Shown: in pieces, positions 1 to 34,616 of the stretch
How positions within the stretch are numbered: position 1 is the first letter of the stretch
How the letters are laid out: each line of letters starts with the position of its first letter
Origin: a virus
Lineage: Duplodnaviria > Heunggongvirae > Uroviricota > Caudoviricetes
IMG/VR virus record: IMGVR_UViG_2740892229_000013
Strand: one strand, 5' to 3'
DNA: 38,746 bases
Translations under genes and position numbers: made by a program
The notes under the pieces: generated by a model
Database searches by the model: none
Seen by the model: only the letters and a program-made list of their open reading frames with translations
What the model was told of the DNA's origin: nothing

Positions 1-49
1 ATGTTATTACCCGATCTCGATGGAAGTTATTGAGTGATCTCCTTTCATG

Positions 50-420
50 AAAATACGCAATTACCCAAACAGCGAAGAAACACCTGAACCACTGAAACCC
101 CAACGAAGCCTGTTACCGCAAGGATTCTCTCAATCCCAAAAGACACGAAACAGAACAATCACGGGAAACGCCATTACCCAATACACGAATAACTACAAAA
201 GCCCTTCACACTCCAGACAAACAACTCAAACACAATAACGAAAGGATTCGCCCACCTGCCATTACTCCATACACGGAGAAGAACAATCACCAAAACGACG
301 AGAACACCCCATAGAAGAACCACCGCAAAACTAACGAAACCACATACACCGACAGAGAAAACAACACACCCAATTCACCAACAGAAATAGTCGCCGTATA
401 GAACGTTCTGGAAGGAGTGA
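50..420. other. A/C-rich, T-depleted low-complexity non-coding segment with degenerate internal repeats
   Basis: Plus strand is almost only A and C over about 370 nt; repeated motifs ACACGnnnnAGAACAATCAC (143-162, 271-290) and GCCATTACnCnATACACG (170-187, 258-275); no credible ORF. Confidence 0.5.
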
Positions 421-746: not shown

Positions 747-1092
747 CGAGAGGGAGAGTTGCGGCTACCCACCTGTAATGTGCGGGAAGAAGAGAGGCGC
801 TCACGTAGGCGGACTTGCTTACCGCTGGATTCCCTCTGAATGCCCAGCTACAGCGTAATTGTGCCAGACAGCCAACGGGTCACAATCGATTTCAGTAGGT
901 TTTCGGGGAGAGGATTATTCTGCCCACCAGCCACTTTCGGCCACTAAATCAGAATAATGTAAAAAGTGTACTCGGTACTGAACCTGAAAACTCACTGCCA
1001 AAACCACATTCACCGGAATAAAATCCTTTTTCGCCTGTGCGTTATTGCGATAATAACACCATCAAGAAAACATGTTGTTTAAGGATTGCTTT

Positions 1093-1422: not shown

Positions 1423-1551
1423 TCCCAACCAAAGCCAGCATTGCTGGCTTAATTTCTCTATAGCCGCTGGGAGGAACCTGCATATCGATCATGCACCTGA
1501 TCATTATGCTTTGTAGCCGTTTTCTTACTGGTATTATTTACGCCATTTAGA

Positions 1552-1564
1552 AAACAAGTTGTTT
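1552..1564. promoter_or_regulatory. 13-bp palindrome AAACAAGTTGTTT (candidate operator)
   Basis: Perfect 6+1+6 inverted repeat just upstream of RBS of gene 1576; identical copy at 12362-12374. Confidence 0.45.
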
Positions 1565-1575
1565 ACGGAGTTGTG

Positions 1576-1887
1576 ATGAAAAAATCATTGGTTCTTGGTC
1601 TGGACAAAGACCAGAAGAGAAAAGAGAAGCCTGCACTGGTTGCTCAATTAACTTTGCTAGACATCGTTGCCAATGGAACCTCTATTCGTCTGTTCCGTGA
1701 AACAGCGGTGTCTTTCGATAAAAACACCTTTACTCGTTATGTAATGAATGTTCGTCGCCAGCGTGGAAAAGGCTGGATGGCATTTCAAAGAATGTGGCCG
1801 GAACATCAGCTCGAACTGGCTTTGATGGAAGTTAACCGCGTGGCCCAGCAAGAAATTCAGAGAGCATCAGTGATGGCAATAGCCTGA
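1576..1887 (+). CDS. hypothetical early protein (103 aa)
   Basis: ORF track 1573..1887; GGAG 1567-1570 then ATG 1576; followed by terminator. Confidence 0.5.
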   Translation: MKKSLVLGLDKDQKRKEKPALVAQLTLLDIVANGTSIRLFRETAVSFDKNTFTRYVMNVRRQRGKGWMAFQRMWPEHQLELALMEVNRVAQQEIQRASVMAIA

Positions 1888-1921
1888 TAATGTGCAAGTG
1901 GTAATTAGTCGACAGTACGAC

Positions 1922-1949
1922 AGCCCCGCCATCCTTACGGGGCTTTTTT
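1922..1949 (+). terminator. rho-independent terminator
   Basis: GCCCCG (1923-1928) / CGGGGC (1938-1943) stem followed by TTTTTT. Confidence 0.7.
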
Positions 1950-1954
1950 GTATT

Positions 1955-1970
1955 GTAAGTACATACTTAC
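1955..1970. promoter_or_regulatory. palindrome GTAAGTACATACTTAC (AGTAAGTA-family site)
   Basis: Perfect inverted repeat GTAAGT/ACTTAC between terminator and gene 2014. Confidence 0.45.
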
Positions 1971-2013
1971 GATCATAGAATAGAAAAATAACCAAGACAC
2001 TACGGAGAGTGAA

Positions 2014-2409
2014 ATGACCGTTAAACGCGAAAAACTGACAGTTGATGTTTACTATGCCTCTGAAACCGCCGAAGGTAAGAATGTGGCAAAAATCACCGTT
2101 GTTACGTACAACACCGAAACTGGTGCCGAAGTCCAGGCCAGTACGATCGTGCGTAAAGGTGATGCCTCCGGCGGCGAGTACGCGACTCAATACCAGTCCA
2201 TTCTCGATGCAACTGACCCGCTGCTGCTGAAAATCGAGAACTACTTCCGCCAGGTTGATGAAGAGGTGTTTGAAACCATGATGAATATGGTTAACACCGT
2301 ATTCGCCTCCAGCCTGAACACCAGCACCACCTGGATTGGCCAGTACGGTCTGCGCATTACCTCTGGCATTCCTGCCGACACCTTAATCCCTGAAAGCGTA
2401 TTCGCTTAA
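2014..2409 (+). CDS. hypothetical early protein (131 aa)
   Basis: ORF with RBS ACGGAGAG 2002-2009; followed by terminator. Confidence 0.55.
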   Translation: MTVKREKLTVDVYYASETAEGKNVAKITVVTYNTETGAEVQASTIVRKGDASGGEYATQYQSILDATDPLLLKIENYFRQVDEEVFETMMNMVNTVFASSLNTSTTWIGQYGLRITSGIPADTLIPESVFA

Positions 2410-2418
2410 TCCTCTTTA

Positions 2419-2447
2419 AATGGCGCGCAAACCGCGCCATTTTATTA
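2419..2447 (+). terminator. rho-independent terminator
   Basis: AATGGCGCG (2419-2427) / CGCGCCATT (2433-2441) 9-bp stem then T-rich tail. Confidence 0.7.
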
Positions 2448-2455
2448 TGCCCGAT

Positions 2456-2466
2456 AACAATTTGTT
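2456..2466. promoter_or_regulatory. palindrome AACAATTTGTT (candidate operator)
   Basis: 5+1+5 inverted repeat upstream of gene 2527. Confidence 0.4.
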
Positions 2467-2526
2467 TTCTGCCTTATCTGATTTGTGAAAATGATTTCAC
2501 TGAAGCAACTTAATAAGGAAACCATC

Positions 2527-2901
2527 ATGGGACTTGATATCTATATCGAGACACAGCCTAAAAACGATCTGAATAACGAGGCATCCAGAAAGCAGGTTGC
2601 TTACTTCCGTAAGTTCAATGCGCTCGTTGGGTGGATGGAGCGCAACGTAGGTGAAGTCGAAAATTGTGAGCTTTTAGAATTAACGATGAATGACATTTGT
2701 CTTCTGAAAGCTCATTTGATGCACATAAACGAAAGCAATTGCGAAGAGTACTTGCCTACTCGGGAAGGTTTTTTCTTCGGCAGTCAGGAGTACGACGAAG
2801 GTTACTGGCATGACGTGGATAAGCTGAAAAAACTTGTGGAAGACCTGATCAGGAACCACGACTTTCACAATAACAGACTGACCTTCTGCGCCTGGTGGTA
2901 A
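2527..2901 (+). CDS. hypothetical early protein (about 124 aa)
   Basis: ORF track 2485..2901; AAGGA 2515-2519 favours ATG 2527. Confidence 0.5.
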   Translation: MGLDIYIETQPKNDLNNEASRKQVAYFRKFNALVGWMERNVGEVENCELLELTMNDICLLKAHLMHINESNCEEYLPTREGFFFGSQEYDEGYWHDVDKLKKLVEDLIRNHDFHNNRLTFCAWW

Positions 2902-2903
2902 AT

Positions 2904-3047
2904 ATGGGCGATTTCAAGAAACGCCTGAAGGAAAGAGCCGAGATGGTCAGAAAGCAAAACGCCTCTTCTGTCATCAGATACGCAAGGCAGTTTAGTCGCA
3001 ACAACAAATCAGTTGAGGAAAAGATCCTTAGCGTAATCGGTCGATAA
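2904..3047 (+). CDS. possible small basic protein (47 aa), not in ORF track
   Basis: ATG 2904 to TAA 3045-3047, K/R-rich; weak RBS; followed by hairpin 3051-3078. Confidence 0.25.
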   Translation: MGDFKKRLKERAEMVRKQNASSVIRYARQFSRNNKSVEEKILSVIGR

Positions 3048-3177
3048 TTATTAAGGCCATCAGCATTGGTGGCCTTAAATGACCATCCTGTTTCCCGCAG
3101 GCTAAAAACACCAACCTCTTACCTCCAGGCAACCGACAAACCCACCTGTTCCCGTCCGGCTACCGCAACTTTCCACT

Positions 3178-3204
3178 TTGACGCCTTATTCGTACAACGA
3201 TAAT
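3178..3204 (+). promoter_or_regulatory. candidate sigma70-like promoter (TTGACG, 15 nt spacer, GATAAT)
   Basis: -35-like 3178-3183 and -10-like 3199-3204 upstream of gene 3252; spacer shorter than optimal. Confidence 0.35.
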
Positions 3205-3219
3205 TAACACAAACAAGAA

Positions 3220-3230
3220 AACAATTTGTT
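3220..3230. promoter_or_regulatory. palindrome AACAATTTGTT (candidate operator)
   Basis: Same 11-mer as 2456-2466, upstream of gene 3252. Confidence 0.4.
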
Positions 3231-3251
3231 ATTTACGATAAGGAATTAATC

Positions 3252-3734
3252 ATGAATTTTATCGCTACTGTAAACGCACCCGCACATGGCAATATCGCTG
3301 TAACGTTCTCTGACATTGAAAAACGAGTACTTGGTGCATGGCGCGACAATGAGACGGTAGAACTGTCAGCACAAGAAAAATGCATTATTGCACGCGACAT
3401 CATTGGCAATCGTCGTTACTCGCGGGTATTTGAGAAAGCGTATGTGGTAAATTCTGGATTCGGAACGTTCGTCTTTCCGGTGCGCTCCGGGCGATTCTGC
3501 CAGTCCAAGCTGATTGAGTTCGCTACGCAGATTTCTGTCTGGATTAAAACTCAATCGTCGTTCAAATTTTCCGACGATGAAGCAGTATCGCAGGGGATGC
3601 GGATCGCCAACAATGCAATTAAATGCAAAAACATTACGTATACCGCTGGCGTTGATACATGGAAACTGTTTTGCGCTAACTTTATGCTGAATGTATACGC
3701 AAGCAACCGCATCCACATCCTTGATGGCGTGTAA
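3252..3734 (+). CDS. hypothetical early protein (160 aa)
   Basis: ORF with AAGGA RBS 3240-3244; terminator follows. Confidence 0.55.
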   Translation: MNFIATVNAPAHGNIAVTFSDIEKRVLGAWRDNETVELSAQEKCIIARDIIGNRRYSRVFEKAYVVNSGFGTFVFPVRSGRFCQSKLIEFATQISVWIKTQSSFKFSDDEAVSQGMRIANNAIKCKNITYTAGVDTWKLFCANFMLNVYASNRIHILDGV

Positions 3735-3736
3735 CT

Positions 3737-3768
3737 GAGAAGAGGGCCAGAAACGGCCCTTTCTCTAT
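3737..3768 (+). terminator. rho-independent terminator (imperfect stem)
   Basis: AGAGGGCC / GGCCCT stem with T-rich tail immediately after stop of gene 3252..3734. Confidence 0.55.
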
Positions 3769-3782
3769 AGCCACCAGCTGCC

Positions 3783-3946
3783 GCAGGGAAATTTTCAGAA
3801 ACGGCGAGGAACGTATTCGTGAGCCGACGGGGAACGGCCAGGATTTTTTCGGGAAACGGCTGCATTCGCCTTTGTGTAGAAAAAACATCGGGAAGCTGGT
3901 GGAATCCAACCAGCGGTTGTCGGACAGGTGAGCGGGGAAAATCATG
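3783..3946 (+). repeat. Second cluster of TTTTCRGGGAAACGGC-type direct repeats (iteron-like)
   Basis: Copies near 3783, 3795, 3826, 3848, 3887, 3930; same core as array at 599-746. Confidence 0.55.
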
Positions 3947-4272
3947 ATGACTTTCGTCGCCTGAGACATCCAGATTTCTTTCGTAGCGTAATCACATATG
4001 TGATTAAGTGGTGTGATTATGTGAAAAATCACGCGCACATAATACGCGAGCGGATACGGAACAAAACAAAATGCCGATCCGCGCCGACAATTAAACGCGG
4101 ATCACATAGCAAGAATAAAAGCCAATGATTAACCATACACCATAACGCAATATAACGCGATTTAAGCGCGTTAATGCGCTAAGTAATGGGTATGTACTGG
4201 TAAGGATATAGAAGCGCGTCTATGGCGTTATTTTGGCGCTTATTTTTATGTTGTTGGCTTGAGTCAAAGACA

Positions 4273-4297
4273 ATAAAAAAAGCGCCATCATTGGCGC
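4273..4297 (-). terminator. terminator for leftward transcription
   Basis: Palindrome GCGCCATCATTGGCGC (4282-4297); on minus strand hairpin is followed by TTTTTTT. Confidence 0.55.
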
Positions 4298-4327
4298 GTT
4301 ATGGTGGAAGTATTGGAAACGAAAAAA

Positions 4328-4344
4328 GCGCCCATAGTGGGCGC
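4328..4344. terminator. 17-bp palindrome GCGCCCATAGTGGGCGC, hairpin/terminator-like, copy 1
   Basis: Perfect 7-3-7 inverted repeat flanked by A-run and T-rich tract; identical copy at 4824-4840. Confidence 0.5.
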
Positions 4345-4350
4345 TCGATT

Positions 4351-4581
4351 TTATTTATGTAGACTGATTTCAAATCCCATTTCTACAAACGCTTTTAACA
4401 TTAAAAATATATCAGCGTCGTTCACGTCTGCTTTTTTTCGCTCCTGGTCGCTCAATAAGTCAATTTTGCGCGTCGTTTCATCTATAAGCTCGACTGCGCG
4501 CCCAGCGTAACCAGCGATCCCAGCGATGCGATTAACATAATATTCGTTATGGACGTTAACGCCAGCGATAAGAACAAACAT
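4351..4581 (-). CDS. hypothetical small protein (76 aa) in AT-rich island
   Basis: ORF with AAGGAGC RBS 6 nt upstream of ATG on minus strand. Confidence 0.45.
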   Translation of the reverse strand: MFVLIAGVNVHNEYYVNRIAGIAGYAGRAVELIDETTRKIDLLSDQERKKADVNDADIFLMLKAFVEMGFEISLHK

Positions 4582-4601
4582 GATTAAGCTCCTTAAAAAA
4601 A

Positions 4602-4805
4602 TTAAATAGAATTTTGAAGTTTTCCGATTAATGCGCTTAAACGTAAGTATTCACGTTTGCGCTTGCAATCTCGCTTGCTGTTAAGCAAATCAGAAAACGT
4701 AAAATTTAATTGGTCGCGTTGCGCGATTAAATCATCGATTAATTCCAGTTTATAAGCGCGATACTTTGCGCGATATTCCGCGCGGATCTTGTCATAGCTG
4801 ACCAT
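4602..4805 (-). CDS. hypothetical small protein (about 67 aa)
   Basis: ORF track 4602..4850; AAAGGAGC RBS favours internal ATG at 4805; upstream part of tracked ORF is the palindrome. Confidence 0.4.
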   Translation of the reverse strand: MVSYDKIRAEYRAKYRAYKLELIDDLIAQRDQLNFTFSDLLNSKRDCKRKREYLRLSALIGKLQNSI

Positions 4806-4823
4806 TTTCAAAGCTCCTTTAAA

Positions 4824-4840
4824 GCGCCCATAGTGGGCGC
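4824..4840. promoter_or_regulatory. 17-bp palindrome GCGCCCATAGTGGGCGC, copy 2
   Basis: Identical to 4328-4344; lies between co-directional minus-strand genes. Confidence 0.5.
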
Positions 4841-4853
4841 TTGATTCCATTAA

Positions 4854-5504
4854 TTACGCTTTGAAAGCATCAGCTAAATAATTGTAGAAATCATTTTTAA
4901 TGAAGCGATATTGCTGAGTACCAGCTTTCGCACTCCCAGCTCCTTTGACTTTTTCAACAAGTCCAAGACGTTCGCAAAGATTGATCAACTGGTTGGCTTG
5001 AGTATAGCCAGCGTCCAATTTAATTTCACACGCTTTTTTAGCTTCATTCATTAAATCGAAAACAGCGCCATTGGTGAACGTGTCGATCTCGTCGTTAATC
5101 ATATCGATTAAAGCGAATACACGAGATCCTGACATATCAGCGATGGAATAAACGCATTTACCAGATTTAATTGATTTAACCAGATAAACCAGTTTTTCCA
5201 GAGAATAACTATTAGTCATTGCATCACGGAAAAATACTTCTGGCGCTTGTTTGCTTGCTTTAATCGCATAGTAGAAAACAGAGCATAATTTTTCGTCTTC
5301 TACTGCGTTTACGACGTTGTTGATGAAGTAAGCAAGTTTAGTGGTCGCAGCTTGCATATTTGCTTTGTCTGCTTTAGTGTGCGTACCATTTTTATAATGT
5401 TCGTTATATGTTTGAGTTGCCAGATCTGCTTTATCGCGCAGCTCGTCGGATACAATAGATGCAGCTTCAATGATGGACTTTTTAGAAATGATAATGTTAG
5501 CCAT
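4854..5504 (-). CDS. hypothetical protein (216 aa), AT-rich island
   Basis: ORF with AAGGAAA RBS; no recognisable catalytic motif by eye. Confidence 0.5.
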   Translation of the reverse strand: MANIIISKKSIIEAASIVSDELRDKADLATQTYNEHYKNGTHTKADKANMQAATTKLAYFINNVVNAVEDEKLCSVFYYAIKASKQAPEVFFRDAMTNSYSLEKLVYLVKSIKSGKCVYSIADMSGSRVFALIDMINDEIDTFTNGAVFDLMNEAKKACEIKLDAGYTQANQLINLCERLGLVEKVKGAGSAKAGTQQYRFIKNDFYNYLADAFKA

Positions 5505-5744
5505 GATAATTTTTCCTTATGTAAATTTAAAATTTATTGTCGTTAGCGTCTTCGCTTTCGACGAGTTCAATTATCGATACGCGAAAAAAGATTGCAAGTG
5601 TTTTTTTTAAATTTTTTGCAGGGATGAAAGTCCTAGAAATAAAAGCGAGATCGTCGAAGGTGTTCCCTAAATAAATAATCGATTCCGGCTTTCGACCTTA
5701 TATATATTTAGGTTATTTGATTTGTAGATATAAAGAAGTGATGT

Positions 5745-5775
5745 GAAAAATAATAACCGGACTTAGCCGGTTATT
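5745..5775 (-). terminator. terminator of minus-strand helicase operon
   Basis: AATAACCGG (5752-5760) / CCGGTTATT (5767-5775) stem; T-run follows on minus strand. Confidence 0.6.
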
Positions 5776-5787
5776 AACCTTATAGAT

Positions 5788-6096
5788 TTATTGAACAGAC
5801 TCTACAGCCTTACGATTGGTGTCAAATAGCGCATCAACGAACTGTGCCGATGACTCGCTAGATTCGCAATCCAACATTGCCCGTTCTTCATTTGCCACTT
5901 TCTTACACAGTTCCACATTCTCACCTATCGCTTTTCCTGCTTTTACGGCTGCCGAAAATTGATACATGCAAACTGATACATTCTGAGACGTTGAGCACAC
6001 GTCATTCATCAGCGACTGAATGACAGGCTTATAGTCCATTGCATTTGCCGCAACTGAGCAAAGTAAAAATAATGGTGGTAACAATATCGATTTCAT
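5788..6096 (-). CDS. small secreted/periplasmic protein (102 aa) with N-terminal signal peptide
   Basis: N-terminus MKSILLPPLFLLCSVAANA looks like a Sec signal peptide; 4 Cys in mature part; start 3 nt after upstream stop. Confidence 0.55.
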   Translation of the reverse strand: MKSILLPPLFLLCSVAANAMDYKPVIQSLMNDVCSTSQNVSVCMYQFSAAVKAGKAIGENVELCKKVANEERAMLDCESSESSAQFVDALFDTNRKAVESVQ

Positions 6097-6099
6097 AAC

Positions 6100-6624
6100 T
6101 CAAAAAGGCAAAATTCGTTCAACCCAATCGAACAAAACAACTATTTTTCTACCGTTCTCGACACGTAGTGTAACCTGACAAGCATCTGCGCCTGCTGACA
6201 CCCCCTCAATTTCACGGCCATCCGCCATGTACACCCTTATAGATTTGTTTGCTTTGTAGGCTTGGTTGCAAATTGCAAAAAAATCGCGGCGTGATGGCCG
6301 ATTATCGACATAATCAGGGTGAACTGTTAGTCGACCTTTGAAATCGTGAGCGATACTGTCAACCACACCTGATTCAATTGTACTAATGCGTTCAAGTGGG
6401 AGCCTTATACGATTTTCTTTGTCAAAAGGGGCTGGGCAAAGGTCAACTTTGTTACGAGATGGCATGAGGCCATAAACGTACATGCAAAACGCCTGGCCAT
6501 CTTCGAGAGTGACCCTTACAGGAATTTGTTCTCTGCGCCAGAACATCAGTAGTTTTTCAACGTTAGTGTAATCTCGCGGCCAGAGTTCAGCTTGGATACC
6601 GTAGGTAATATCTTTGGTTGTCAT
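6100..6624 (-). CDS. hypothetical protein (about 174 aa)
   Basis: ORF track 6100..6702; ATG 6624 begins 4 nt after lipoprotein stop (coupled), so upstream extension rejected. Confidence 0.5.
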   Translation of the reverse strand: MTTKDITYGIQAELWPRDYTNVEKLLMFWRREQIPVRVTLEDGQAFCMYVYGLMPSRNKVDLCPAPFDKENRIRLPLERISTIESGVVDSIAHDFKGRLTVHPDYVDNRPSRRDFFAICNQAYKANKSIRVYMADGREIEGVSAGADACQVTLRVENGRKIVVLFDWVERILPF

Positions 6625-6628
6625 GTCA

Positions 6629-7093
6629 TCACAGAGTTGTTGGCAGAATGTCGATGTCACCAGAATTGCTGGTGAACACCCTGAACGCTTTTGTGTCTCC
6701 ATTCTTCAGAGTCGTTTCTCGCTCTTGACGAGCGGGGTTTAGAGCACATAAACCTGCACCTTCAAGAGATGCACCCACAATTAATTCTCCGGCATTTAAA
6801 TGGAAAGTCGCTTTTTCGCCTGTAGCCAGTTTTGCGACAGTTTCGCCATTGATGAAAATGGAAGCATCACATCCAGCTCCTACAAAACCTGTGTCTCTCA
6901 TTACCACCAACGTAGCTGGCGCTGCGCTTTGATACTTGAACACTTTGGCCTGCGGTGCTGGTTTGGCGTCATGGATTGATATTGGACGTGATTGGCACGC
7001 GGTAAGCATCAACACTGGTAACGTTAGTAGAGGGAGAAGCGAGTATTTCATGTTAGTTTTAGAACAGAAAGTGAACAGTATGGGAGACTTCAT
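6629..7093 (-). CDS. putative lipoprotein (lipobox LTAC)
   Basis: Hydrophobic N-terminus LLPLLTLPVLMLTAC-Q with lipobox; AGGGAGA RBS before ATG 7093; alternative start 7051. Confidence 0.6.
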   Translation of the reverse strand: MKSPILFTFCSKTNMKYSLLPLLTLPVLMLTACQSRPISIHDAKPAPQAKVFKYQSAAPATLVVMRDTGFVGAGCDASIFINGETVAKLATGEKATFHLNAGELIVGASLEGAGLCALNPARQERETTLKNGDTKAFRVFTSNSGDIDILPTTL

Positions 7094-7119
7094 CTTTGTC
7101 TCCCTAATTGATAGCGTGA

Positions 7120-7398
7120 TTATTTTAATCTGCTTAATAGCGTTTCGAGATCTTCCTTTGTCATATTAGAGTTCTCATAGATACGCATGATTTTCTCACG
7201 AGTCTTAGCGGAAGCCCCGACAGAAGATATAACCTTGTCAAAGTCGGCCATTGTCAATTGTTCCAGAATGGTATTAATGACTTCAGCCTTAGACATTTTG
7301 ATATTTTTTTCTTTTAGTTTCACTTGAAACTTTCCAAGTTTGTCATTGGCCTTATCAGACAATGCTACCTGACAGTAAGTTGTTTTCTTTTCACTCAT
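7120..7398 (-). CDS. hypothetical small protein (92 aa), possible DNA-binding
   Basis: ORF begins 2 nt after helicase stop. Confidence 0.45.
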   Translation of the reverse strand: MSEKKTTYCQVALSDKANDKLGKFQVKLKEKNIKMSKAEVINTILEQLTMADFDKVISSVGASAKTREKIMRIYENSNMTKEDLETLLSRLK

Positions 7399-7400
7399 AA

Positions 7401-8960
7401 CTAATCTCGTTTCAGAACTCCAAAATCGAATGCTCCATCAATAGGCAATACACCTTCTGCAAAGCCAGGTGTGGTGTCGATGATGTGTTTTCGCTCATAA
7501 GAGTGAGACAACAGGTATTTGTTGCTAATGTCAATGAAATCAGTGATAAAACACACGTTTGCCTGATTTTTTTTGGCTCGTAAGCCACGACCGACACGCT
7601 GTCTCATTTCAACTTCTGCTTTCCCACCACCAGCAAGAATGACCGCACCAACGCTTGGCACATCAACACCAACATCCAGAATAGTCGAGCCTATTAAAAC
7701 ATCTATTTCACCAGACGCTAAACTGTTCAGCTTTGCTTGCCTTGTCGTCTGGTTAGATTCCCCATAGATGAAATCAACTCTAAGACCTGACTCCTTCATC
7801 ATCTCCATCAGGATTTGCCCGTGGCGTTTAAGACGAACCAGAGTCATGCAGTTGAGTGAATGTTGCTTATAAAGCAATGCCTCGCGCACTATGGCCTCGT
7901 TACGTCCCAAATTATACACGATCCCCAACTGATAAGCCTTTTGGTAGGCGGTGCTCATACCAACTCTAAAATTGAGATGTTTGTTGGCAAGTTCGGCCTT
8001 GATTCTGGCCTCGTCTGGCTTGTAGGCAACTTTATGATAAAGGAAGTACGGCTTTGCCAGAATGCCTCGATCAATCAGGTACTTTTCTGTGACTTTAATT
8101 TCAATTCGCCCGGCCACCGCCATCAGGCGCATGTTGGCTTCCGTCGAATCCTTCATGAACGGCGTGGCTGTAAGCGCCAGACGATAGTCTGCGTTCACAC
8201 ATAATCTGGCGATGTCATAGAAATTTGAGCCTGAAGACTCATGCGCCTCTTCCAGAATAAGAAGAGAGACACTTGAAAGGAAGCGTTTCACCAACTCCCG
8301 ACGTTTGAGGTGGTAGCTTTTCTTATCTGGTGTTGCATCGCGTGGTGGTTCTTCGAGGAAACTTGCAAGAGTTTGAACTGTAGCGACGTTGATATGTCGT
8401 GATACCTGGAACTCACCCGAGCCAATGACTCCAACCTTTTGGTCTTTTAACCACGGTTCGCCATTTTTGGCGCGGTAGTCGATGGATCTCTGGAAGTTTT
8501 CGGCCATTTGAAACATCAGAACAGAGCGGGTTGTTAAAAATAATGTCATTCGACCGATACGTGCAGCTGCTTTGCAGGCAACATTAGATTTCCCGCCACC
8601 AGTAGCGATCTGCGCAATCATCATTCCCTCTCGAACCAGTGTTTCCACAGTCTGATCCTGATACGCATAATCAGGATTGTATGGGAATGGGTTAACCGCC
8701 GGATTTGGTTTTCCAAGCGCCGGGGCTTTGTCTTTGCGGATATGAACACATTTGATGCCCGCCTTGTTCAAGTTCGCCGCTACAGGCTTGGCAAAGCCTG
8801 CAGGGAACGAGTTTTTACTCCAGTTGAACATTGTGCTTGTGCCCTTCCAGTCGCCAGTCTCGACTTCGTAGCTCAACATCTGTTGCACCAGTTGCTTTAC
8901 CTTGTCATCTGCGCCAGAAATAAGCGCATTAACTGCGTTAGATACAATCCGAACAGTCAT
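7401..8960 (-). CDS. SF2 DNA/RNA helicase (DEAH-type)
   Basis: Walker A ATGGGKSN, DEAH-like LILEEAH, motif III LTATP, motif VI QRVGRGLR; strong RBS AAGGAAAGAGG. Confidence 0.85.
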   Translation of the reverse strand: MTVRIVSNAVNALISGADDKVKQLVQQMLSYEVETGDWKGTSTMFNWSKNSFPAGFAKPVAANLNKAGIKCVHIRKDKAPALGKPNPAVNPFPYNPDYAYQDQTVETLVREGMMIAQIATGGGKSNVACKAAARIGRMTLFLTTRSVLMFQMAENFQRSIDYRAKNGEPWLKDQKVGVIGSGEFQVSRHINVATVQTLASFLEEPPRDATPDKKSYHLKRRELVKRFLSSVSLLILEEAHESSGSNFYDIARLCVNADYRLALTATPFMKDSTEANMRLMAVAGRIEIKVTEKYLIDRGILAKPYFLYHKVAYKPDEARIKAELANKHLNFRVGMSTAYQKAYQLGIVYNLGRNEAIVREALLYKQHSLNCMTLVRLKRHGQILMEMMKESGLRVDFIYGESNQTTRQAKLNSLASGEIDVLIGSTILDVGVDVPSVGAVILAGGGKAEVEMRQRVGRGLRAKKNQANVCFITDFIDISNKYLLSHSYERKHIIDTTPGFAEGVLPIDGAFDFGVLKRD

Positions 8961-9042
8961 AAACCTCTTTCCTTAGTGCCTTTTGTATGTTATTTGGCTA
9001 TTATAATAAGTAAGTGATTACTTAGTGGATTGTAGCAATAAA
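8961..9042. promoter_or_regulatory. divergent promoter/operator region
   Basis: Between divergent helicase and ParB operons; contains TATAAT (9002-9007) and palindrome AAGTAAGTGATTACTT (9008-9023). Confidence 0.45.
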
Positions 9043-9726
9043 ATGGATGTAAAAATCACGATTTTGCAGGTTGATGTTGCCAACCTTCGCCCGAATACCT
9101 GGAACACCAATTCGGTTGGTGCGCAGAATTTTGAAAAACTGAAAGGTTCTATCGAAAAATTGGGCTTTTTTAAGCCAATTTTGGCTCGTGAACTTGAAGA
9201 TGGATTTTTTGAAATCCTCGGCGGCGAACATCGCTGGCGTGCCGCTATTGAGCAAGGAATTTCAACGGTTCCAGTGCTTTCTGTGGGCAAAATTAGCGAT
9301 GTCGTAGCTAAACAGATGTCACTGGTGGACAACGAGCGATACGGTGAAGACGACCAAATCGCATTGCAACGCTTCATTGAAGAAATTCAGTCAGAACTTG
9401 ACTATCAACTGTCTGAAATCGCCCCGTATGACGACGAAATCTCGATGGTTTTAGCAAAAGAGGCGGCAATCGACCTTGAAGCACTGGAGGCGTTGTCTCG
9501 TGGTAGTGATGAGCCTGTCGATACCGACAAACGAGAGAAAACCGAACGTGTGGGGGCGGAACATCAGACCATGCGCTTCAAAGTAACTTTCGATGCGTCA
9601 GATCGTGTTGCAGAAACCATAAAAAACATCATCAAAGAGCAGGCTATTAACACCGGTAATGAAATGGAGAACGCTGGTGAGGCTCTGGTGTGGCTGGTCG
9701 ACTACTACTACAAGGAGCGTATGTAA
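9043..9726 (+). CDS. ParB/Srx-like nuclease-domain protein 1 (possible RHH C-terminus)
   Basis: N-terminal ParB-type motif FEILGGEHRWRAAIEQG; ORF track starts GTG 9025, ATG 9043 preferred. Confidence 0.75.
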   Translation: MDVKITILQVDVANLRPNTWNTNSVGAQNFEKLKGSIEKLGFFKPILARELEDGFFEILGGEHRWRAAIEQGISTVPVLSVGKISDVVAKQMSLVDNERYGEDDQIALQRFIEEIQSELDYQLSEIAPYDDEISMVLAKEAAIDLEALEALSRGSDEPVDTDKREKTERVGAEHQTMRFKVTFDASDRVAETIKNIIKEQAINTGNEMENAGEALVWLVDYYYKERM

Positions 9727-10394
9727 TGACCAAAAAGTTTGAAATCGTATATCGCGACCCGGCAGATCTTATTCCCTATGAGATGAATGCCAAAAAGCAT
9801 GATGAACAGCAGATCCGAGATCTAGCCGCAGCCATTAAAAAGCGCGGATTTGACCAGCCAATTACGGTCGATAAGAACGACGTAATTATTACTGGCCACG
9901 GCCGCCGTGAGGCTGCAATTTTTGCTGGACTTGAGCGCGTACCGGTTATTGTTCGCGATGATCTCAGTGATGACGAGGTTCGTGCGAAGCGCCTTGAAGA
10001 TAACCGACTTGCCAGCATTGATTACGATGCAATTAAGCTACAGAAAGAGCTTGAGTCGCTTGTTCTGGACGATATCGAGGTTTTCGGCTTTGAAGAGCGT
10101 GAGTTGAATGTTCTCGTTGGCAGCATGACAGAAGAAATGGACACCGACTCGCTAGTTATCGATCTTGGCGAAGAAACTAAACGACAGAAGGATGAACACA
10201 CCGAGATCAGTCGTGAAGTTGCAGCGGAAGAAGTACGTGTTGTCGACGTATTGGGCTTTAAAACGCTTCCTGCTGGCTCTGCCATTGTTGTTGGTGATTT
10301 GCTTGCCCACATGGAAGAAATGACGGGAGAAAGCGGGGTAGACGCATTTGTGGCATATGCGGAGAAGATCTCTTCCGGGGAGATGGCTGTATGA
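9726..10394 (+). CDS. ParB/Srx-like nuclease-domain protein 2
   Basis: Motif ITGHGRREAAIFAG; ATG overlaps upstream stop (TAATG); ORF track start 9690 rejected. Confidence 0.75.
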   Translation: MTKKFEIVYRDPADLIPYEMNAKKHDEQQIRDLAAAIKKRGFDQPITVDKNDVIITGHGRREAAIFAGLERVPVIVRDDLSDDEVRAKRLEDNRLASIDYDAIKLQKELESLVLDDIEVFGFEERELNVLVGSMTEEMDTDSLVIDLGEETKRQKDEHTEISREVAAEEVRVVDVLGFKTLPAGSAIVVGDLLAHMEEMTGESGVDAFVAYAEKISSGEMAV

Positions 10395-11056
10395 GCAAAT
10401 ACATCATCAACGTATCGTTTCAGACACGCGTAAATAAAACCACGCGCACGTTGGAAATCGCTGAGTCGTTCGGGCTTGGCCTGGACGAAAAAGAGTGGAC
10501 GCTTTACGACAATCTGGAGCTGGAAGTGAAGCAGGGCGATGTGGTGTACATCACCGGCCAATCCGGTTCCGGCAAATCCGTTGTGCTGCGCGAGTTGCAA
10601 CGACAGATGAAGGATGAAGGGCTGTCTGTAGCCTCCATCGATGATTTTACCTTCGATAATGAGGTTAACGTCATCGATCAGTTGGGCAAAACGACCAGCG
10701 ATGCGCTTGGGTTGTTATCTATGGCTGGTCTGAACGATGCATATCTGTTTGTTCGCAAGCCTTCTGAAATGTCAGACGGTCAGAAATATCGTCTCAAGAT
10801 TGCCAAACTGATTGAGTCAGGCGCTAAAGTGTGGGCTGCTGACGAGTTCGGTGCTGTTCTAGACCGTGTAACCGCTCAGGTTGTGGCATCTAACCTCCAG
10901 CGTGCCGCTCGAAAGGTTGGTGCGACGGTAATGGTGGCGACGACTCACGAAGACCTGAAGAACGCGCTGCGCCCGGATATGCAGATCACCAAGCACTACA
11001 AAGAACGCGTGAAGGTGGAATATCACAATGGTAGTCATGATGAGGTTCATTTATGA
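10391..11056 (+). CDS. soluble ABC-type ATPase
   Basis: Walker A GQSGSGKS, ABC signature MSDGQ, Walker B VWAADE, H-loop ATTHED; no TM segments; ATGA overlap with upstream gene. Confidence 0.8.
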   Translation: MSKYIINVSFQTRVNKTTRTLEIAESFGLGLDEKEWTLYDNLELEVKQGDVVYITGQSGSGKSVVLRELQRQMKDEGLSVASIDDFTFDNEVNVIDQLGKTTSDALGLLSMAGLNDAYLFVRKPSEMSDGQKYRLKIAKLIESGAKVWAADEFGAVLDRVTAQVVASNLQRAARKVGATVMVATTHEDLKNALRPDMQITKHYKERVKVEYHNGSHDEVHL

Positions 11057-11943
11057 CGGACATCATCATTAAACGCTACCGCCCTGAAGAGTTTCCGCGT
11101 CATCTGGACTTTCTGGAGCGAATGACTGTCACAAAGGGAACTGTAGAGGACTGGCACGCTCTTAAGTCGCTTCACTACAAAACAGACGGCAAACCTTTCG
11201 CGCCAACTTACTATCGCTGCGAACTTGATGACCGTCTGGTGGGCGTCGTGGTTATGGCTTACCCGAAACTACTGCTGGCACCTCGCCACCGCATGTTTCC
11301 TAAGTTGAAACCAACCACTAATACCACCGTGGCTAACCAGTACTGGGGTCGGTACGTGAATAACAACTTTGCGGTGATCAGTCGCTCAGTTGTGGATACT
11401 CAGTATCGTGGCGTAGGCGTCTCTTATCGAATGATTAACCTGGTTAGCAGGATGCATGACCGGCCAATCATTGAGATCCAGTCCTCGATGAGCAAATACA
11501 ATCCCTTCGCCATGAAAGCAGGGTTTAAGTTCATCCGCCCTGAGCGACCGAAGAGCTATGAAAGTGCACTGCGTGTATTCCAGCGCCATTTCCGTTCCGA
11601 CCCGGGTGATAACGAGGCGATCGTCAAAGAATTGTTCGCAATGAGCGAGTCTCGTCGTCGCCGTGCACTGCGTGATCTGGTGGCGGACTACCACAAGAAC
11701 AGTTCCCTGGCAAAAGCTGGGCGGAATCGTGGCACGACGATTCAGGACATTGCCGACAGTCTGGTGGACGAGGCCAGCATTGTGAAGCTGCTCAAGGACA
11801 TTCACAACCTGAGCTTTACGTCTCCGTTGTATGGTGTGTACCGAAACCCTGACTTTGGCCGTCGACTGCCTGACACGCTGCCACTGCTGGCATTCGACAA
11901 ACAACCTTTGGATAAACCGTTAGAAATTGCTTTACCGGCATAA
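11053..11943 (+). CDS. GNAT-fold acyltransferase-like protein with C-terminal extension
   Basis: QYRGVGVSYRM (acyl-CoA binding-type motif) and NPFAMKAGFKF; ATGA overlap with ABC ATPase gene. Confidence 0.5.
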   Translation: MTDIIIKRYRPEEFPRHLDFLERMTVTKGTVEDWHALKSLHYKTDGKPFAPTYYRCELDDRLVGVVVMAYPKLLLAPRHRMFPKLKPTTNTTVANQYWGRYVNNNFAVISRSVVDTQYRGVGVSYRMINLVSRMHDRPIIEIQSSMSKYNPFAMKAGFKFIRPERPKSYESALRVFQRHFRSDPGDNEAIVKELFAMSESRRRRALRDLVADYHKNSSLAKAGRNRGTTIQDIADSLVDEASIVKLLKDIHNLSFTSPLYGVYRNPDFGRRLPDTLPLLAFDKQPLDKPLEIALPA

Positions 11944-11952
11944 GGATTTGCC

Positions 11953-12219
11953 ATGACGTTAACCGATAAACAAAAGGACATCATCAAAACGCTCAATCTC
12001 GGTTATGAGCGAGGTCATCTACTTGACCTGGACGAATTGCTTGAAGTTTTGCCGTACAAGACAACCAAGCAAAGTATCCAGTTCTCAATTCGCGCTCTGA
12101 TAAAAAAGGGGCTGGTGGAGAAAGGGCATACGCGCCAACGCAGTGACAATCGCTATCACCGCCGAACTCTTGGGTTAACCACTTTAGGTCGAGCCAAAGC
12201 GAAGTTACTGGTGATGTAA
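11953..12219 (+). CDS. small winged-helix-like DNA-binding protein
   Basis: 88 aa, basic C-terminus; AAGGA RBS. Confidence 0.45.
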   Translation: MTLTDKQKDIIKTLNLGYERGHLLDLDELLEVLPYKTTKQSIQFSIRALIKKGLVEKGHTRQRSDNRYHRRTLGLTTLGRAKAKLLVM

Positions 12220-12221
12220 TC

Positions 12222-12397
12222 GGTCTGGGAGCTTATTTAAAGACCTGCATCTGTATATATAAATAATAAGTAACTTATTAAATATATACGGAAGCAGGCT
12301 TCGTAAGACATGCCAGACCTAATTAAACACCCCAGAAAACAAGTTGGTTAGCAGATGCAGTAAACAAGTTGTTTTAGAGCGCATGGACGCGCTCTGT
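12222..12397. promoter_or_regulatory. structured intergenic region upstream of terS (nested inverted repeats, AT-rich palindrome)
   Basis: GGTCTGG 12222-12228 / CCAGACC 12313-12319; CTGCATCTG 12245-12253 / CAGATGCAG 12352-12360; AT palindrome 12253-12289; AAACAAGTTGTTT 12362-12374; AGAGCGC/GCGCTCT 12376-12397. Confidence 0.45.
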
Positions 12398-12414
12398 GTG
12401 TTTTAGAGGGATCT

Positions 12415-21299: not shown

Positions 21300-21319
21300 T
21301 AGTAAGTATATACTTACTA
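21300..21319. promoter_or_regulatory. 20-bp perfect palindrome TAGTAAGTATATACTTACTA
   Basis: Upstream of major tail gene. Confidence 0.5.
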
Positions 21320-34598: not shown

Positions 34599-34616
34599 TA
34601 AGTAGGTACATACTTA
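34599..34616. promoter_or_regulatory. palindrome TAAGTAGGTACATACTTA
   Basis: TAAGTA/TACTTA inverted repeat upstream of fibre gene, followed by hairpin GGTGGGC/GCCCACC 34619-34639. Confidence 0.45.

Follow-up and report, generated by a model that had tools for sequence, protein, structure and literature searches.

Why does one short palindrome, AAACAA-N-TTGTTT, stand before scattered genes of a tailed phage, and what reads it? The question is raised by IMG/VR virus record IMGVR_UViG_2740892229_000013, a stretch of 38,746 nucleotides (the window, by which its full length is always meant), in which a sequence-only reading had noticed the palindrome and taken it for an operator shared by early genes and the packaging operon. 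The first 8 kb of the window match Escherichia phage CMS-2020a with 97.9% identity over 99% of their length, and the same 8 kb are also matched by Cyrano, PhiR41_1, SSU5 and Klebsiella relatives (phage records of ~84-120 kb). Judged by these matches, the window is a 38.7-kb piece of an SSU5-type phage-plasmid. Such phage-plasmids are common in clinical Enterobacteriaceae (a FljA-like gene, used as marker, is found on 835 PLSDB plasmids, Yersinia pestis pMT1 included), and literature searches found no work on their choice between plasmid life and lytic growth. A cis-element placed on 15-20 transcription units would give a handle on this lifestyle circuit; it defines a regulon and can serve as bait for the regulator. 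In the present analysis the palindrome was found to be the core of an oriented element repeated at many promoters, and we consider the chances even that a symmetric, putative regulator encoded by the phage reads it as an operator in double-stranded DNA.

Distribution and conservation of the element

The window and the complete genomes of CMS-2020a and SSU5 were scanned for the motif, and the SSU5 annotation was used for intergenic counts. The conserved unit in these scans is a 17-mer, AGAAAACAAnTTGTTTA, built around the palindrome. It is oriented: the AGAA flank lies on the promoter side and the orientation matches that of the downstream gene. Exact copies of AACAANTTGTT number 4 in the window against 0.09 expected, and at least 4 were seen in 0/100 shuffles (AACANNTTGTT-type counts). 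When up to two mismatches were allowed, the 13-mer gave 13 strand-matches against 1.81 expected. These represent six physical sites and one extra match at 6135-6147, which lies inside a gene and is probably due to chance. The same scan found no site or similar sequence in the 26 kb of structural genes at 12.4-38.7 kb.

All six sites lie where the sequence-only reading had placed them. The identical 13-mer AAACAAGTTGTTT is present at 1552-1564 and 12362-12374, and the variants reported by that reading, AACAATTTGTT at 2456-2466 and 3220-3230 and AACAAGTTGGTT at 12338-12349, were recovered as well. Its 'AACATGTT' at 1069-1076 also marks a site, which is in fact a one-mismatch version of the 13-mer, AAACATGTTGTTT, at 1068-1080. 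The distance of 10-60 nt to a start codon proved essentially correct, the gaps between the end of the 17-mer and the ATG being 11, 10, 56, 19, 64 and 39 nt at sites 1-6, that is, 10-64 nt.

A genome-wide scan, proposed earlier as a check, was run on SSU5 and revealed extreme enrichment upstream of genes. Intergenic DNA makes up 11.6% of this genome, and all 13 exact copies of AACAANTTGTT lie in it (13/13; expected 0.1 genome-wide and ~0.06 intergenic), as do 22 of the 26 copies with one mismatch (expected 3.7 genome-wide and ~0.9 intergenic). One short sequence is thus repeated at many promoters, far above chance and mostly between genes, as is found with the multi-copy operator of a global repressor. 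For 15 of 20 oriented sites, one of them serving a minus-strand gene, the centre is 19-92 nt upstream of a same-strand start codon. Dyad symmetry is also evident, since exact AGAAAACAA half-sites are accompanied by the TTGTTTA partner in 13 cases out of 15.

The SSU5 genes behind the motif are, by annotation, terS, a parA-like gene, a dnaB-like helicase gene, nrdB, a DNA methyltransferase gene, a gene for a 'porphyrin biosynthesis protein' (cobT-like in our own reading) and about eight small genes without known function. The proposed sharing of sites holds for the window, where the small-gene block (1-4 kb), the putative early genes, and the terS/packaging leader both carry them. It is too narrow for SSU5, where sites also precede the parA-like, dnaB-like, nrdB, methyltransferase and cobT-like genes. 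From this distribution the motif is seen to mark a predicted genome-wide regulon and not only the putative early block and the packaging operon.

The element is also kept among relatives. The motif and the promoter cassette around it, described below, are unchanged in Y. pestis pMT1 and in three more distant relatives (L201-L203), whose FljA-like proteins are 53-57% identical to that of the window. In a divergent Klebsiella lineage (L205), with the gene order of the window and a FljA-like protein of only 36% identity, AAACAA-N1-TTGTTT ranks first in an unbiased palindrome count, with 11 copies in 40 kb. Among IMG/VR loci with the exact 17-mer, 78/120 are SSU5-like. The other 42 are single, chance-level matches, and on this count the 17-mer element is specific to the SSU5-type lineage. 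No match for the element was obtained in Rfam, and full-text literature searches with the motif strings and for SSU5 regulation found no description.

Promoter cassette

The element is part of a conserved cassette, in which an optional inverted copy at about -38, a (G/A)CCTT box, a GATAAT-type -10 hexamer, the 17-mer, and the Shine-Dalgarno sequence with the ATG follow one another. The box is separated from the hexamer by 11 nt, the hexamer from the 17-mer by 10 nt, and the 17-mer from the Shine-Dalgarno sequence by 0-30 nt. Gene-proximal copies usually start 10 nt (8-11) past the -10-like hexamer, of which GATAAT is the commonest form. In SSU5, a stringent -10-like hexamer ends 8-11 nt upstream in 9/19 sites and exactly 10 nt upstream in 6, where the background rate is 0.011 per position. 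Spacing between site and Shine-Dalgarno sequence is variable by comparison (0 to ~30 nt). An AAnnCCAAnA stretch between hexamer and site is conserved too, along with the (G/A)CCTT box 11 nt before the hexamer. If transcription starts ~7 nt past the hexamer, as we infer, the 17-mer would cover about +5 to +21 and the palindrome about +8 to +20.

Some promoters carry two sites. The second copy is inverted and its centre lies exactly 51 bp upstream, near -38 (88325/88376 and 93668/93719 in SSU5, 31986/32037 in CMS-2020a), and this arrangement is found at three non-orthologous promoters. Three of the upstream copies come right after the terminator stem of the gene before. About 15 of 20 SSU5 sites fit a predicted leader near the ribosome-binding site; the -38 and terminator-adjacent copies fall outside it.

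In the window, site 2 (1549-1565, plus strand) is a perfect 17-mer, AGAAAACAAGTTGTTTA, 10 nt before the ATG at 1576, with TATTAT (1532-1537) 11 nt upstream of it. The region GCTTTGTAGCC, TATTAT and the 17-mer are constant across five genomes, as read off the listed sites, the formal alignment having taken in two relatives. Site 4 (3216-3232, plus strand; AGAAAACAATTTGTTAT) lies 19 nt before the ATG at 3252, and TTGACG (3178-3183) and GATAAT (3199-3204) are found upstream. When the five orthologues of this promoter were aligned, CGATAATTA and AAAACAAnTTGTT were invariant, the central base was free and the flanks had diverged, so that the -10 hexamer and the AAAACAAnTTGTT core stand out as a footprint against diverging flanks. 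Site 3 (2454-2470, minus strand) is an inverted copy that reads ATAACAATTTGTTTTCT on the plus strand. It lies ~14 nt past the terminator of the upstream gene and ~16 nt upstream of the -10-like hexamer GAAAAT (2487-2492), and the centre of its palindrome falls near -38 relative to the promoter of the gene that begins at 2527. The arrangement recurs in SSU5 at 85608, 88325 and 93668; at site 3 the downstream partner copy has been lost. Here the sequence-only reading, in which each copy lay 10-60 nt upstream of a start codon, needs amendment: this copy is inverted and stands before the -10 hexamer of its promoter and is not a leader copy.

Site 1 (1065-1081, plus strand; AGAAAACATGTTGTTTA) has its core at 1068-1080 with one mismatch and ends 11 nt before the ATG at 1093. 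The -10-like hexamer of its inferred promoter, GATAAT (1049-1054, plus strand), is exactly 10 nt upstream. The core reads AACATGTTGTT in the window, AACAACATGTT in CMS-2020a (L003) and AACAACGTGTT in SSU5 (92170). The versions in the window and CMS-2020a are reverse complements of each other and differ by three adjacent changes, as from a template-switch (quasi-palindrome) mutation.

The leader of terS is marked twice. Site 5 (12334-12350, plus strand; AGAAAACAAGTTGGTTA) begins 10 nt after CCTAAT (12318-12323). Site 6 (12359-12375, plus strand; AGTAAACAAGTTGTTTT) has its centre 25 bp downstream of that of site 5 and adjoins a terminator-like hairpin, AGAGCGC-ATGGAC-GCGCTCT followed by GTGTGTTTT (12375-12405, plus strand), which is placed between site 6 and the terS ATG (12415), before the ribosome-binding site. 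The two sites and the hairpin are kept in SSU5 and pMT1. More distant relatives have two-sided changes that preserve the pairing of the stem (GGCGC/GCGCC, GGTGC/GCACC), which suggests that the hairpin is a selected terminator or attenuator before the packaging operon.

RNA levels in a lysogen

The published RNA-seq table of strain LF82, a Cyrano lysogen, was used to assess expression; it is one dataset. The motif-bearing genes CYRAN_101, 105, 106, 108, 110, 111 and 1 read 6-25, where background is 9.8. The motif-free neighbours CYRAN 98, 99, 102, 109 and 117 read 57-148. As the -10 hexamers are good, with GATAAT and a TTGACG-type -35 at some promoters, the low RNA would be more easily explained by active repression or fast RNA decay than by promoters that are dead in themselves. 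With palindromy, position and silence of the downstream genes in the lysogen taken together, it is reasonable to read the AAACAA-N-TTGTTT sites as an operator.

The block could instead need no dedicated trans-factor and be intrinsic to a duplicated promoter-leader cassette, for example as an A/C-rich initial transcribed region or as a translation-enhancing leader. The semblance of a regulon would then come from copies of the cassette having been placed before many genes. Conservation does extend beyond the palindrome, to the (G/A)CCTT box, AAnnCCAAnA and the AGAA flank with its fixed orientation; the leaders, moreover, are rich in A and lack structure. We nevertheless regard this explanation as very improbable. 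The palindromic partner is nearly always kept (the 13/15 above), the core is invariant across lineages while the cassette flanks diverge, and inverted copies occur upstream of promoters. A function confined to the leader would have no need of symmetry.

The palindrome as a proposed DNA operator

What the symmetry is for was addressed at the RNA level by folding. The RNA hairpin of the palindrome has a free energy of -0.7 kcal/mol, no better than shuffles (z ~0), and no structure is seen in the leaders. The idea of a stable hairpin or fold in the leader RNA was therefore rejected. Since the hairpin is marginal, the symmetry is better explained by a dimer reading double-stranded DNA. The retained palindromic partner, a register fixed to the -10 hexamer and not to the ribosome-binding site, and the copies upstream of promoters all point in the same direction.

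In such a DNA operator, the 6-1-6 palindrome at about +8 to +20 would be occupied by a dimeric phage regulator, which would hold the polymerase back from clearing sigma-70-type promoters. Where a copy is present at -38, 51 bp or about five helical turns away, the -35 region would be blocked as well, perhaps cooperatively. The paired copies of the terS leader, 25 bp from each other, would together with the terminator-like hairpin prevent read-through into the packaging/structural operon. One protein could in this manner keep 15-20 dispersed transcription units jointly silent. Binding and repression by this protein are what we infer from the observed sites, their statistics and register, their conservation and the low downstream RNA.

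Candidate binding proteins

The window runs from small single-gene units (1-4 kb) through a minus-strand operon (helicase, a 92-aa protein, a lipoprotein and the FljA-like protein) to two ParB-like genes, ATPase genes, an 88-aa gene, terS, terL and the structural genes. Four kinds of candidate are encoded in it.

The FljA-family gene (6100-6624, minus strand) specifies 174 aa with predicted tandem Sm/Hfq-like domains and is a candidate for a binder at the RNA level. The protein matches the entire Pfam Flag1_repress profile (E 2.5e-84). Among 50,697 phage records, full-length genes were found only in SSU5-like records (12/14 hits); the other two hits were short, partial and in fragment records. 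Of the 835 plasmids with the gene, 345 are from Klebsiella and 62 from Yersinia (pMT1), and an S. Typhi contig of ~107 kb that carries it is presumably pHCM2. The gene is present in all complete SSU5-type genomes and divergent relatives examined. It is expressed in the LF82 lysogen (18 in overnight LB; log2 7-8 in four of five conditions). Between the window and L205 the protein is 36% identical, and an N-terminal motif that is otherwise invariant is altered in L205. Klebsiella and Y. pestis hosts are non-motile; host flagellin is therefore unlikely to be the conserved target. We know of no function described for the FljA family outside flagellar phase variation.

These properties bear on another explanation, in which the element is an RNA operator. 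The FljA-like tandem Sm/Hfq-like protein would bind the two halves of the site, one A-rich and one U-rich, just 5' of the ribosome-binding site, block translation and destabilise ~15-20 phage mRNAs, as Salmonella FljA acts on fliC. As far as can be gathered from the papers that cite these studies, FljA prevents fliC mRNA translation (Bonifield & Hughes 2003; Yamamoto & Kutsukake 2006). The tandem Sm-like fold, as predicted, would support binding of single-stranded nucleic acid in general. A family member is encoded in the element itself, the full-length gene is confined to SSU5-like records among phages and occurs in plasmids of non-motile hosts, and it is expressed in the lysogen. All gene-proximal sites lie within the predicted transcribed leader with the flank oriented with the gene, and by hand count in SSU5 the right half deviates from consensus more often.

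Against this stands the exact 6-1-6 mirror symmetry, which has no role in single-stranded RNA, the hairpin being marginal. The -38 and terminator-adjacent copies are outside the leader that they would regulate, and it is the distance to the -10 hexamer that is fixed while that to the ribosome-binding site varies by 0-30 nt. A 21-nt weight matrix made from the phage sites gave no score in the fliC 5'UTR, and an 8-mer that is shared, CAAGUUGU, lies in a fliC loop that is variable between FljA-bearing genera. The L205 protein, with its low identity and changed N-terminal motif, coexists with an identical motif. On balance we hold the RNA operator to be unlikely. If the FljA-like protein is the binder after all, the family would gain a general function beyond flagellar phase variation: the phase-variation repressor fold of flagella would have been recruited by a whole family of phage-plasmids as a translational silencer of ~20 of their own mRNAs, and kept in non-flagellated Klebsiella and Y. 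pestis. Beside the FljA-like protein, another regulator could still make use of the palindrome as a site in DNA. The fliC leader was also considered as a sister site. The Salmonella/Citrobacter 5'UTR shares CAAGTTGT, but given the absent weight-matrix score and the variation of this stretch between genera, the likeness was put down to coincidence.

For the DNA operator, the 92-aa protein (7120-7398, minus strand), a homologue of CYRAN_117 with a ribbon-helix-helix-like sequence pattern, is a candidate DNA binder. It is expressed in the LF82 lysogen (RNA 114) and shows 35% identity between the window and L205. AlphaFold gave a pLDDT of 50; hhalign placed it against CopG in the right register with E 0.04, below threshold, and searches with hhalign against Mnt and in Pfam and NCBIfam were without match.

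Two other kinds of candidate are better conserved. The probable winged-helix protein of 88 aa (11953-12219, plus strand), a candidate DNA binder encoded immediately upstream of the terS leader, is the most conserved of all (78% identity between the window and L205). Its winged-helix matches are below threshold (Sta1, Lrs14 and the LexA N-terminus with E 0.0025-0.05, RosR with E ~1). The two ParB-N-domain proteins (9043-10394, plus strand), candidates of the KorB type, are each 66% identical in L205. RNA from the 88-aa gene and from both ParB-like genes is at background in the LF82 lysogen.

With such proteins the sites could be part of a lytic-phase switch, in which the 88-aa protein or a ParB/KorB-like protein, made in lytic growth and not as a lysogenic repressor, binds the DNA sites, shuts early/middle units and controls the passage to the late operon. 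A functional analogue is p4 of phage phi29, a repressor of early and activator of late promoters. Identities of 78% and 66%, where the FljA-like and 92-aa proteins have ~35%, fit an invariant motif. The weak winged-helix matches and the place of the 88-aa gene immediately upstream of the doubly marked terS leader also speak for it, and KorB of RK2, a ParB-family protein, reads a 13-bp 6-1-6 palindrome at ~12 sites. We find this switch distinctly unlikely all the same. The fold assignments of the 88-aa protein are all below threshold, the candidates' own operon is headed by another palindrome family, and, with their own RNA at background, they would leave the low RNA of motif-bearing genes in the lysogen unexplained unless the promoters of the latter are intrinsically weak.

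Other candidates were set aside. CYRAN_45, a helix-turn-helix protein named as putative master repressor in the LF82 paper, is an unlikely binder: SSU5 carries the full motif set but lacks a homologue, and the intergenic region of CYRAN_45 itself is free of the motif. None of the host factors IHF, Fis, CRP/FNR, LexA, KdgR and LysR-type gave a fit when their consensus sequences were compared with the motif. Co-occurrence tests did not discriminate between candidate binders: IMG/VR holds no independent lineage, pMT1 keeps all candidates, and L201-L203 and L205 keep the same motif.

Several points weigh against the DNA operator. Its binder is represented by candidates only. Those expressed in the lysogen and found in every relative examined (the 92-aa and FljA-like proteins) are only ~35% identical between lineages with an identical motif, and the well-conserved ones (the 88-aa protein and both ParB-like proteins) show background RNA there. 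A purely symmetric DNA site would predict neither the constant orientation of the AGAA flank, toward the promoter and with the gene, nor the excess of consensus deviations in the right half (~7 vs 2 in SSU5, by hand count). The 25-bp spacing of sites 5 and 6 is out of helical phase. A simple sigma-70 consensus scan called none of these promoters, their -35 boxes and spacing being sub-optimal, and the uniformity of the cassette could stem in part from common descent of duplicated promoters.

Relation to known operators

In P1, the C1 repressor acts at one short operator at many scattered promoters of a plasmid-prophage and silences many units, replication functions included. The SSU5-type element is alike in that one short candidate operator is dispersed over many transcription units. 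It differs in being a 6-1-6 palindrome, where the P1 operator is an asymmetric 17-mer, ATTGCTCTAATAAATTT, without sequence resemblance, and in being present in the leader of the packaging operon as well. The OB operator of RK2 (IncP), read by the ParB-family protein KorB in a system that also includes KorA, is a 13-bp 6-1-6 palindrome, TTTAGC-S-GCTAAA, with ~12 copies, some centred near -39/-40. Here the geometry is the same and two ParB-N-domain proteins are encoded in the window. The sequence is different, however, most SSU5-type copies lie downstream of the -10 hexamer at about +14, and the ParB-like genes are silent in the lysogen. When the SSU5-type motif was compared with the consensus sequences of C1 (ATTGCTCTAATAAATTT) and OB (TTTAGCSGCTAAA), no match was found. 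Because the sequences differ, the element is, by this comparison, an analogue and not a member of these operators.

The placement of the sites resembles that in lac, whose main operator O1, centred at +11, falls in the initial transcribed region, with an auxiliary operator further upstream that faces about the same side of the helix. The lac case is a single operon with a longer operator, and the separation in SSU5-type promoters is only 51 bp.

Two RNA-level systems were compared as well. The likeness to Salmonella FljA and fliC lies in the full-length FljA homologue in the element and in sites within predicted 5' leaders near the ribosome-binding site. The phage motif, unlike the fliC leader in sequence, is palindromic, multi-copy and partly outside leaders. 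T4 RegA would be comparable if the RNA operator holds, in that one phage protein represses many phage mRNAs by way of short AU-rich sequences close to the ribosome-binding site. Its sites differ in lacking a palindrome and in overlapping the start codon, and the protein fold is unrelated.

A second palindrome family and an inserted gene

The AAACAA-N-TTGTTT sites are distinct, as the sequence-only reading had held, from a second family, TAAGTA-N(1-8)-TACTTA. Its members lie at 1957-1968, 9008-9023, ~12262-12274, 21304-21315 and 34600-34615 in the window and at 9069, 21939, 38180, 41775 and 55701 in SSU5. The palindrome begins immediately past a TAnAAT-like hexamer and would thus coincide with the start of transcription. 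Members stand at the head of the divergent helicase/ParB operons and of the gene that begins at 2014 and at two internal points of the tail operon, and one is also present ~85 nt upstream of the terS sites. In L205, GTAAGT-N4-ACTTAC is the second most frequent palindrome. By its placement this family looks like a separate class of promoter or operator.

In L203, an AbiJ/Abi_C-type gene has been inserted between the 88-aa gene and terS (3151-3167 and 3277-4170). It has an AACAA cassette of its own and is divergent from terS, by which this accessory defence gene seems to have joined the regulon.

Features at the start of the window

The first 59-60 nt of the window (1-60) are 100% identical to tail-fibre-assembly/host-envelope genes of unrelated E. 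coli phages (the PhiR12 group, vB_EcoS-783R2), and homology to SSU5-type genomes begins at ~55-60. The window thus starts with a mosaic junction, which replaced a promoter that relatives have upstream of an A/C-rich region. This region (55-400) is T-poor (A 43%, C 32%, G 13%, T 12% over 346 nt) and without a convincing open reading frame, and a hairpin resembling a terminator lies beyond it at 511-538. In SSU5, L202 and L203 the AACAA palindrome stands before the stretch, in one or two copies. It may be a non-coding RNA; no match to it was found in Rfam. A role as RNA decoy with half-sites was rejected, as no enrichment over dinucleotide shuffles was seen.

Iteron-like direct repeats, G(A/G)AA(A/C)GG(C/T), follow on one strand with a 22-bp periodicity at 605, 627, 649 and 671, and then at 724 (605-731 in all). 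A second cluster is located at 3798-3860, with repeats at 3798, 3831 and 3853, so that the two clusters flank the small-gene block. From their arrangement, these repeats could be binding sites for a replication or partition protein.

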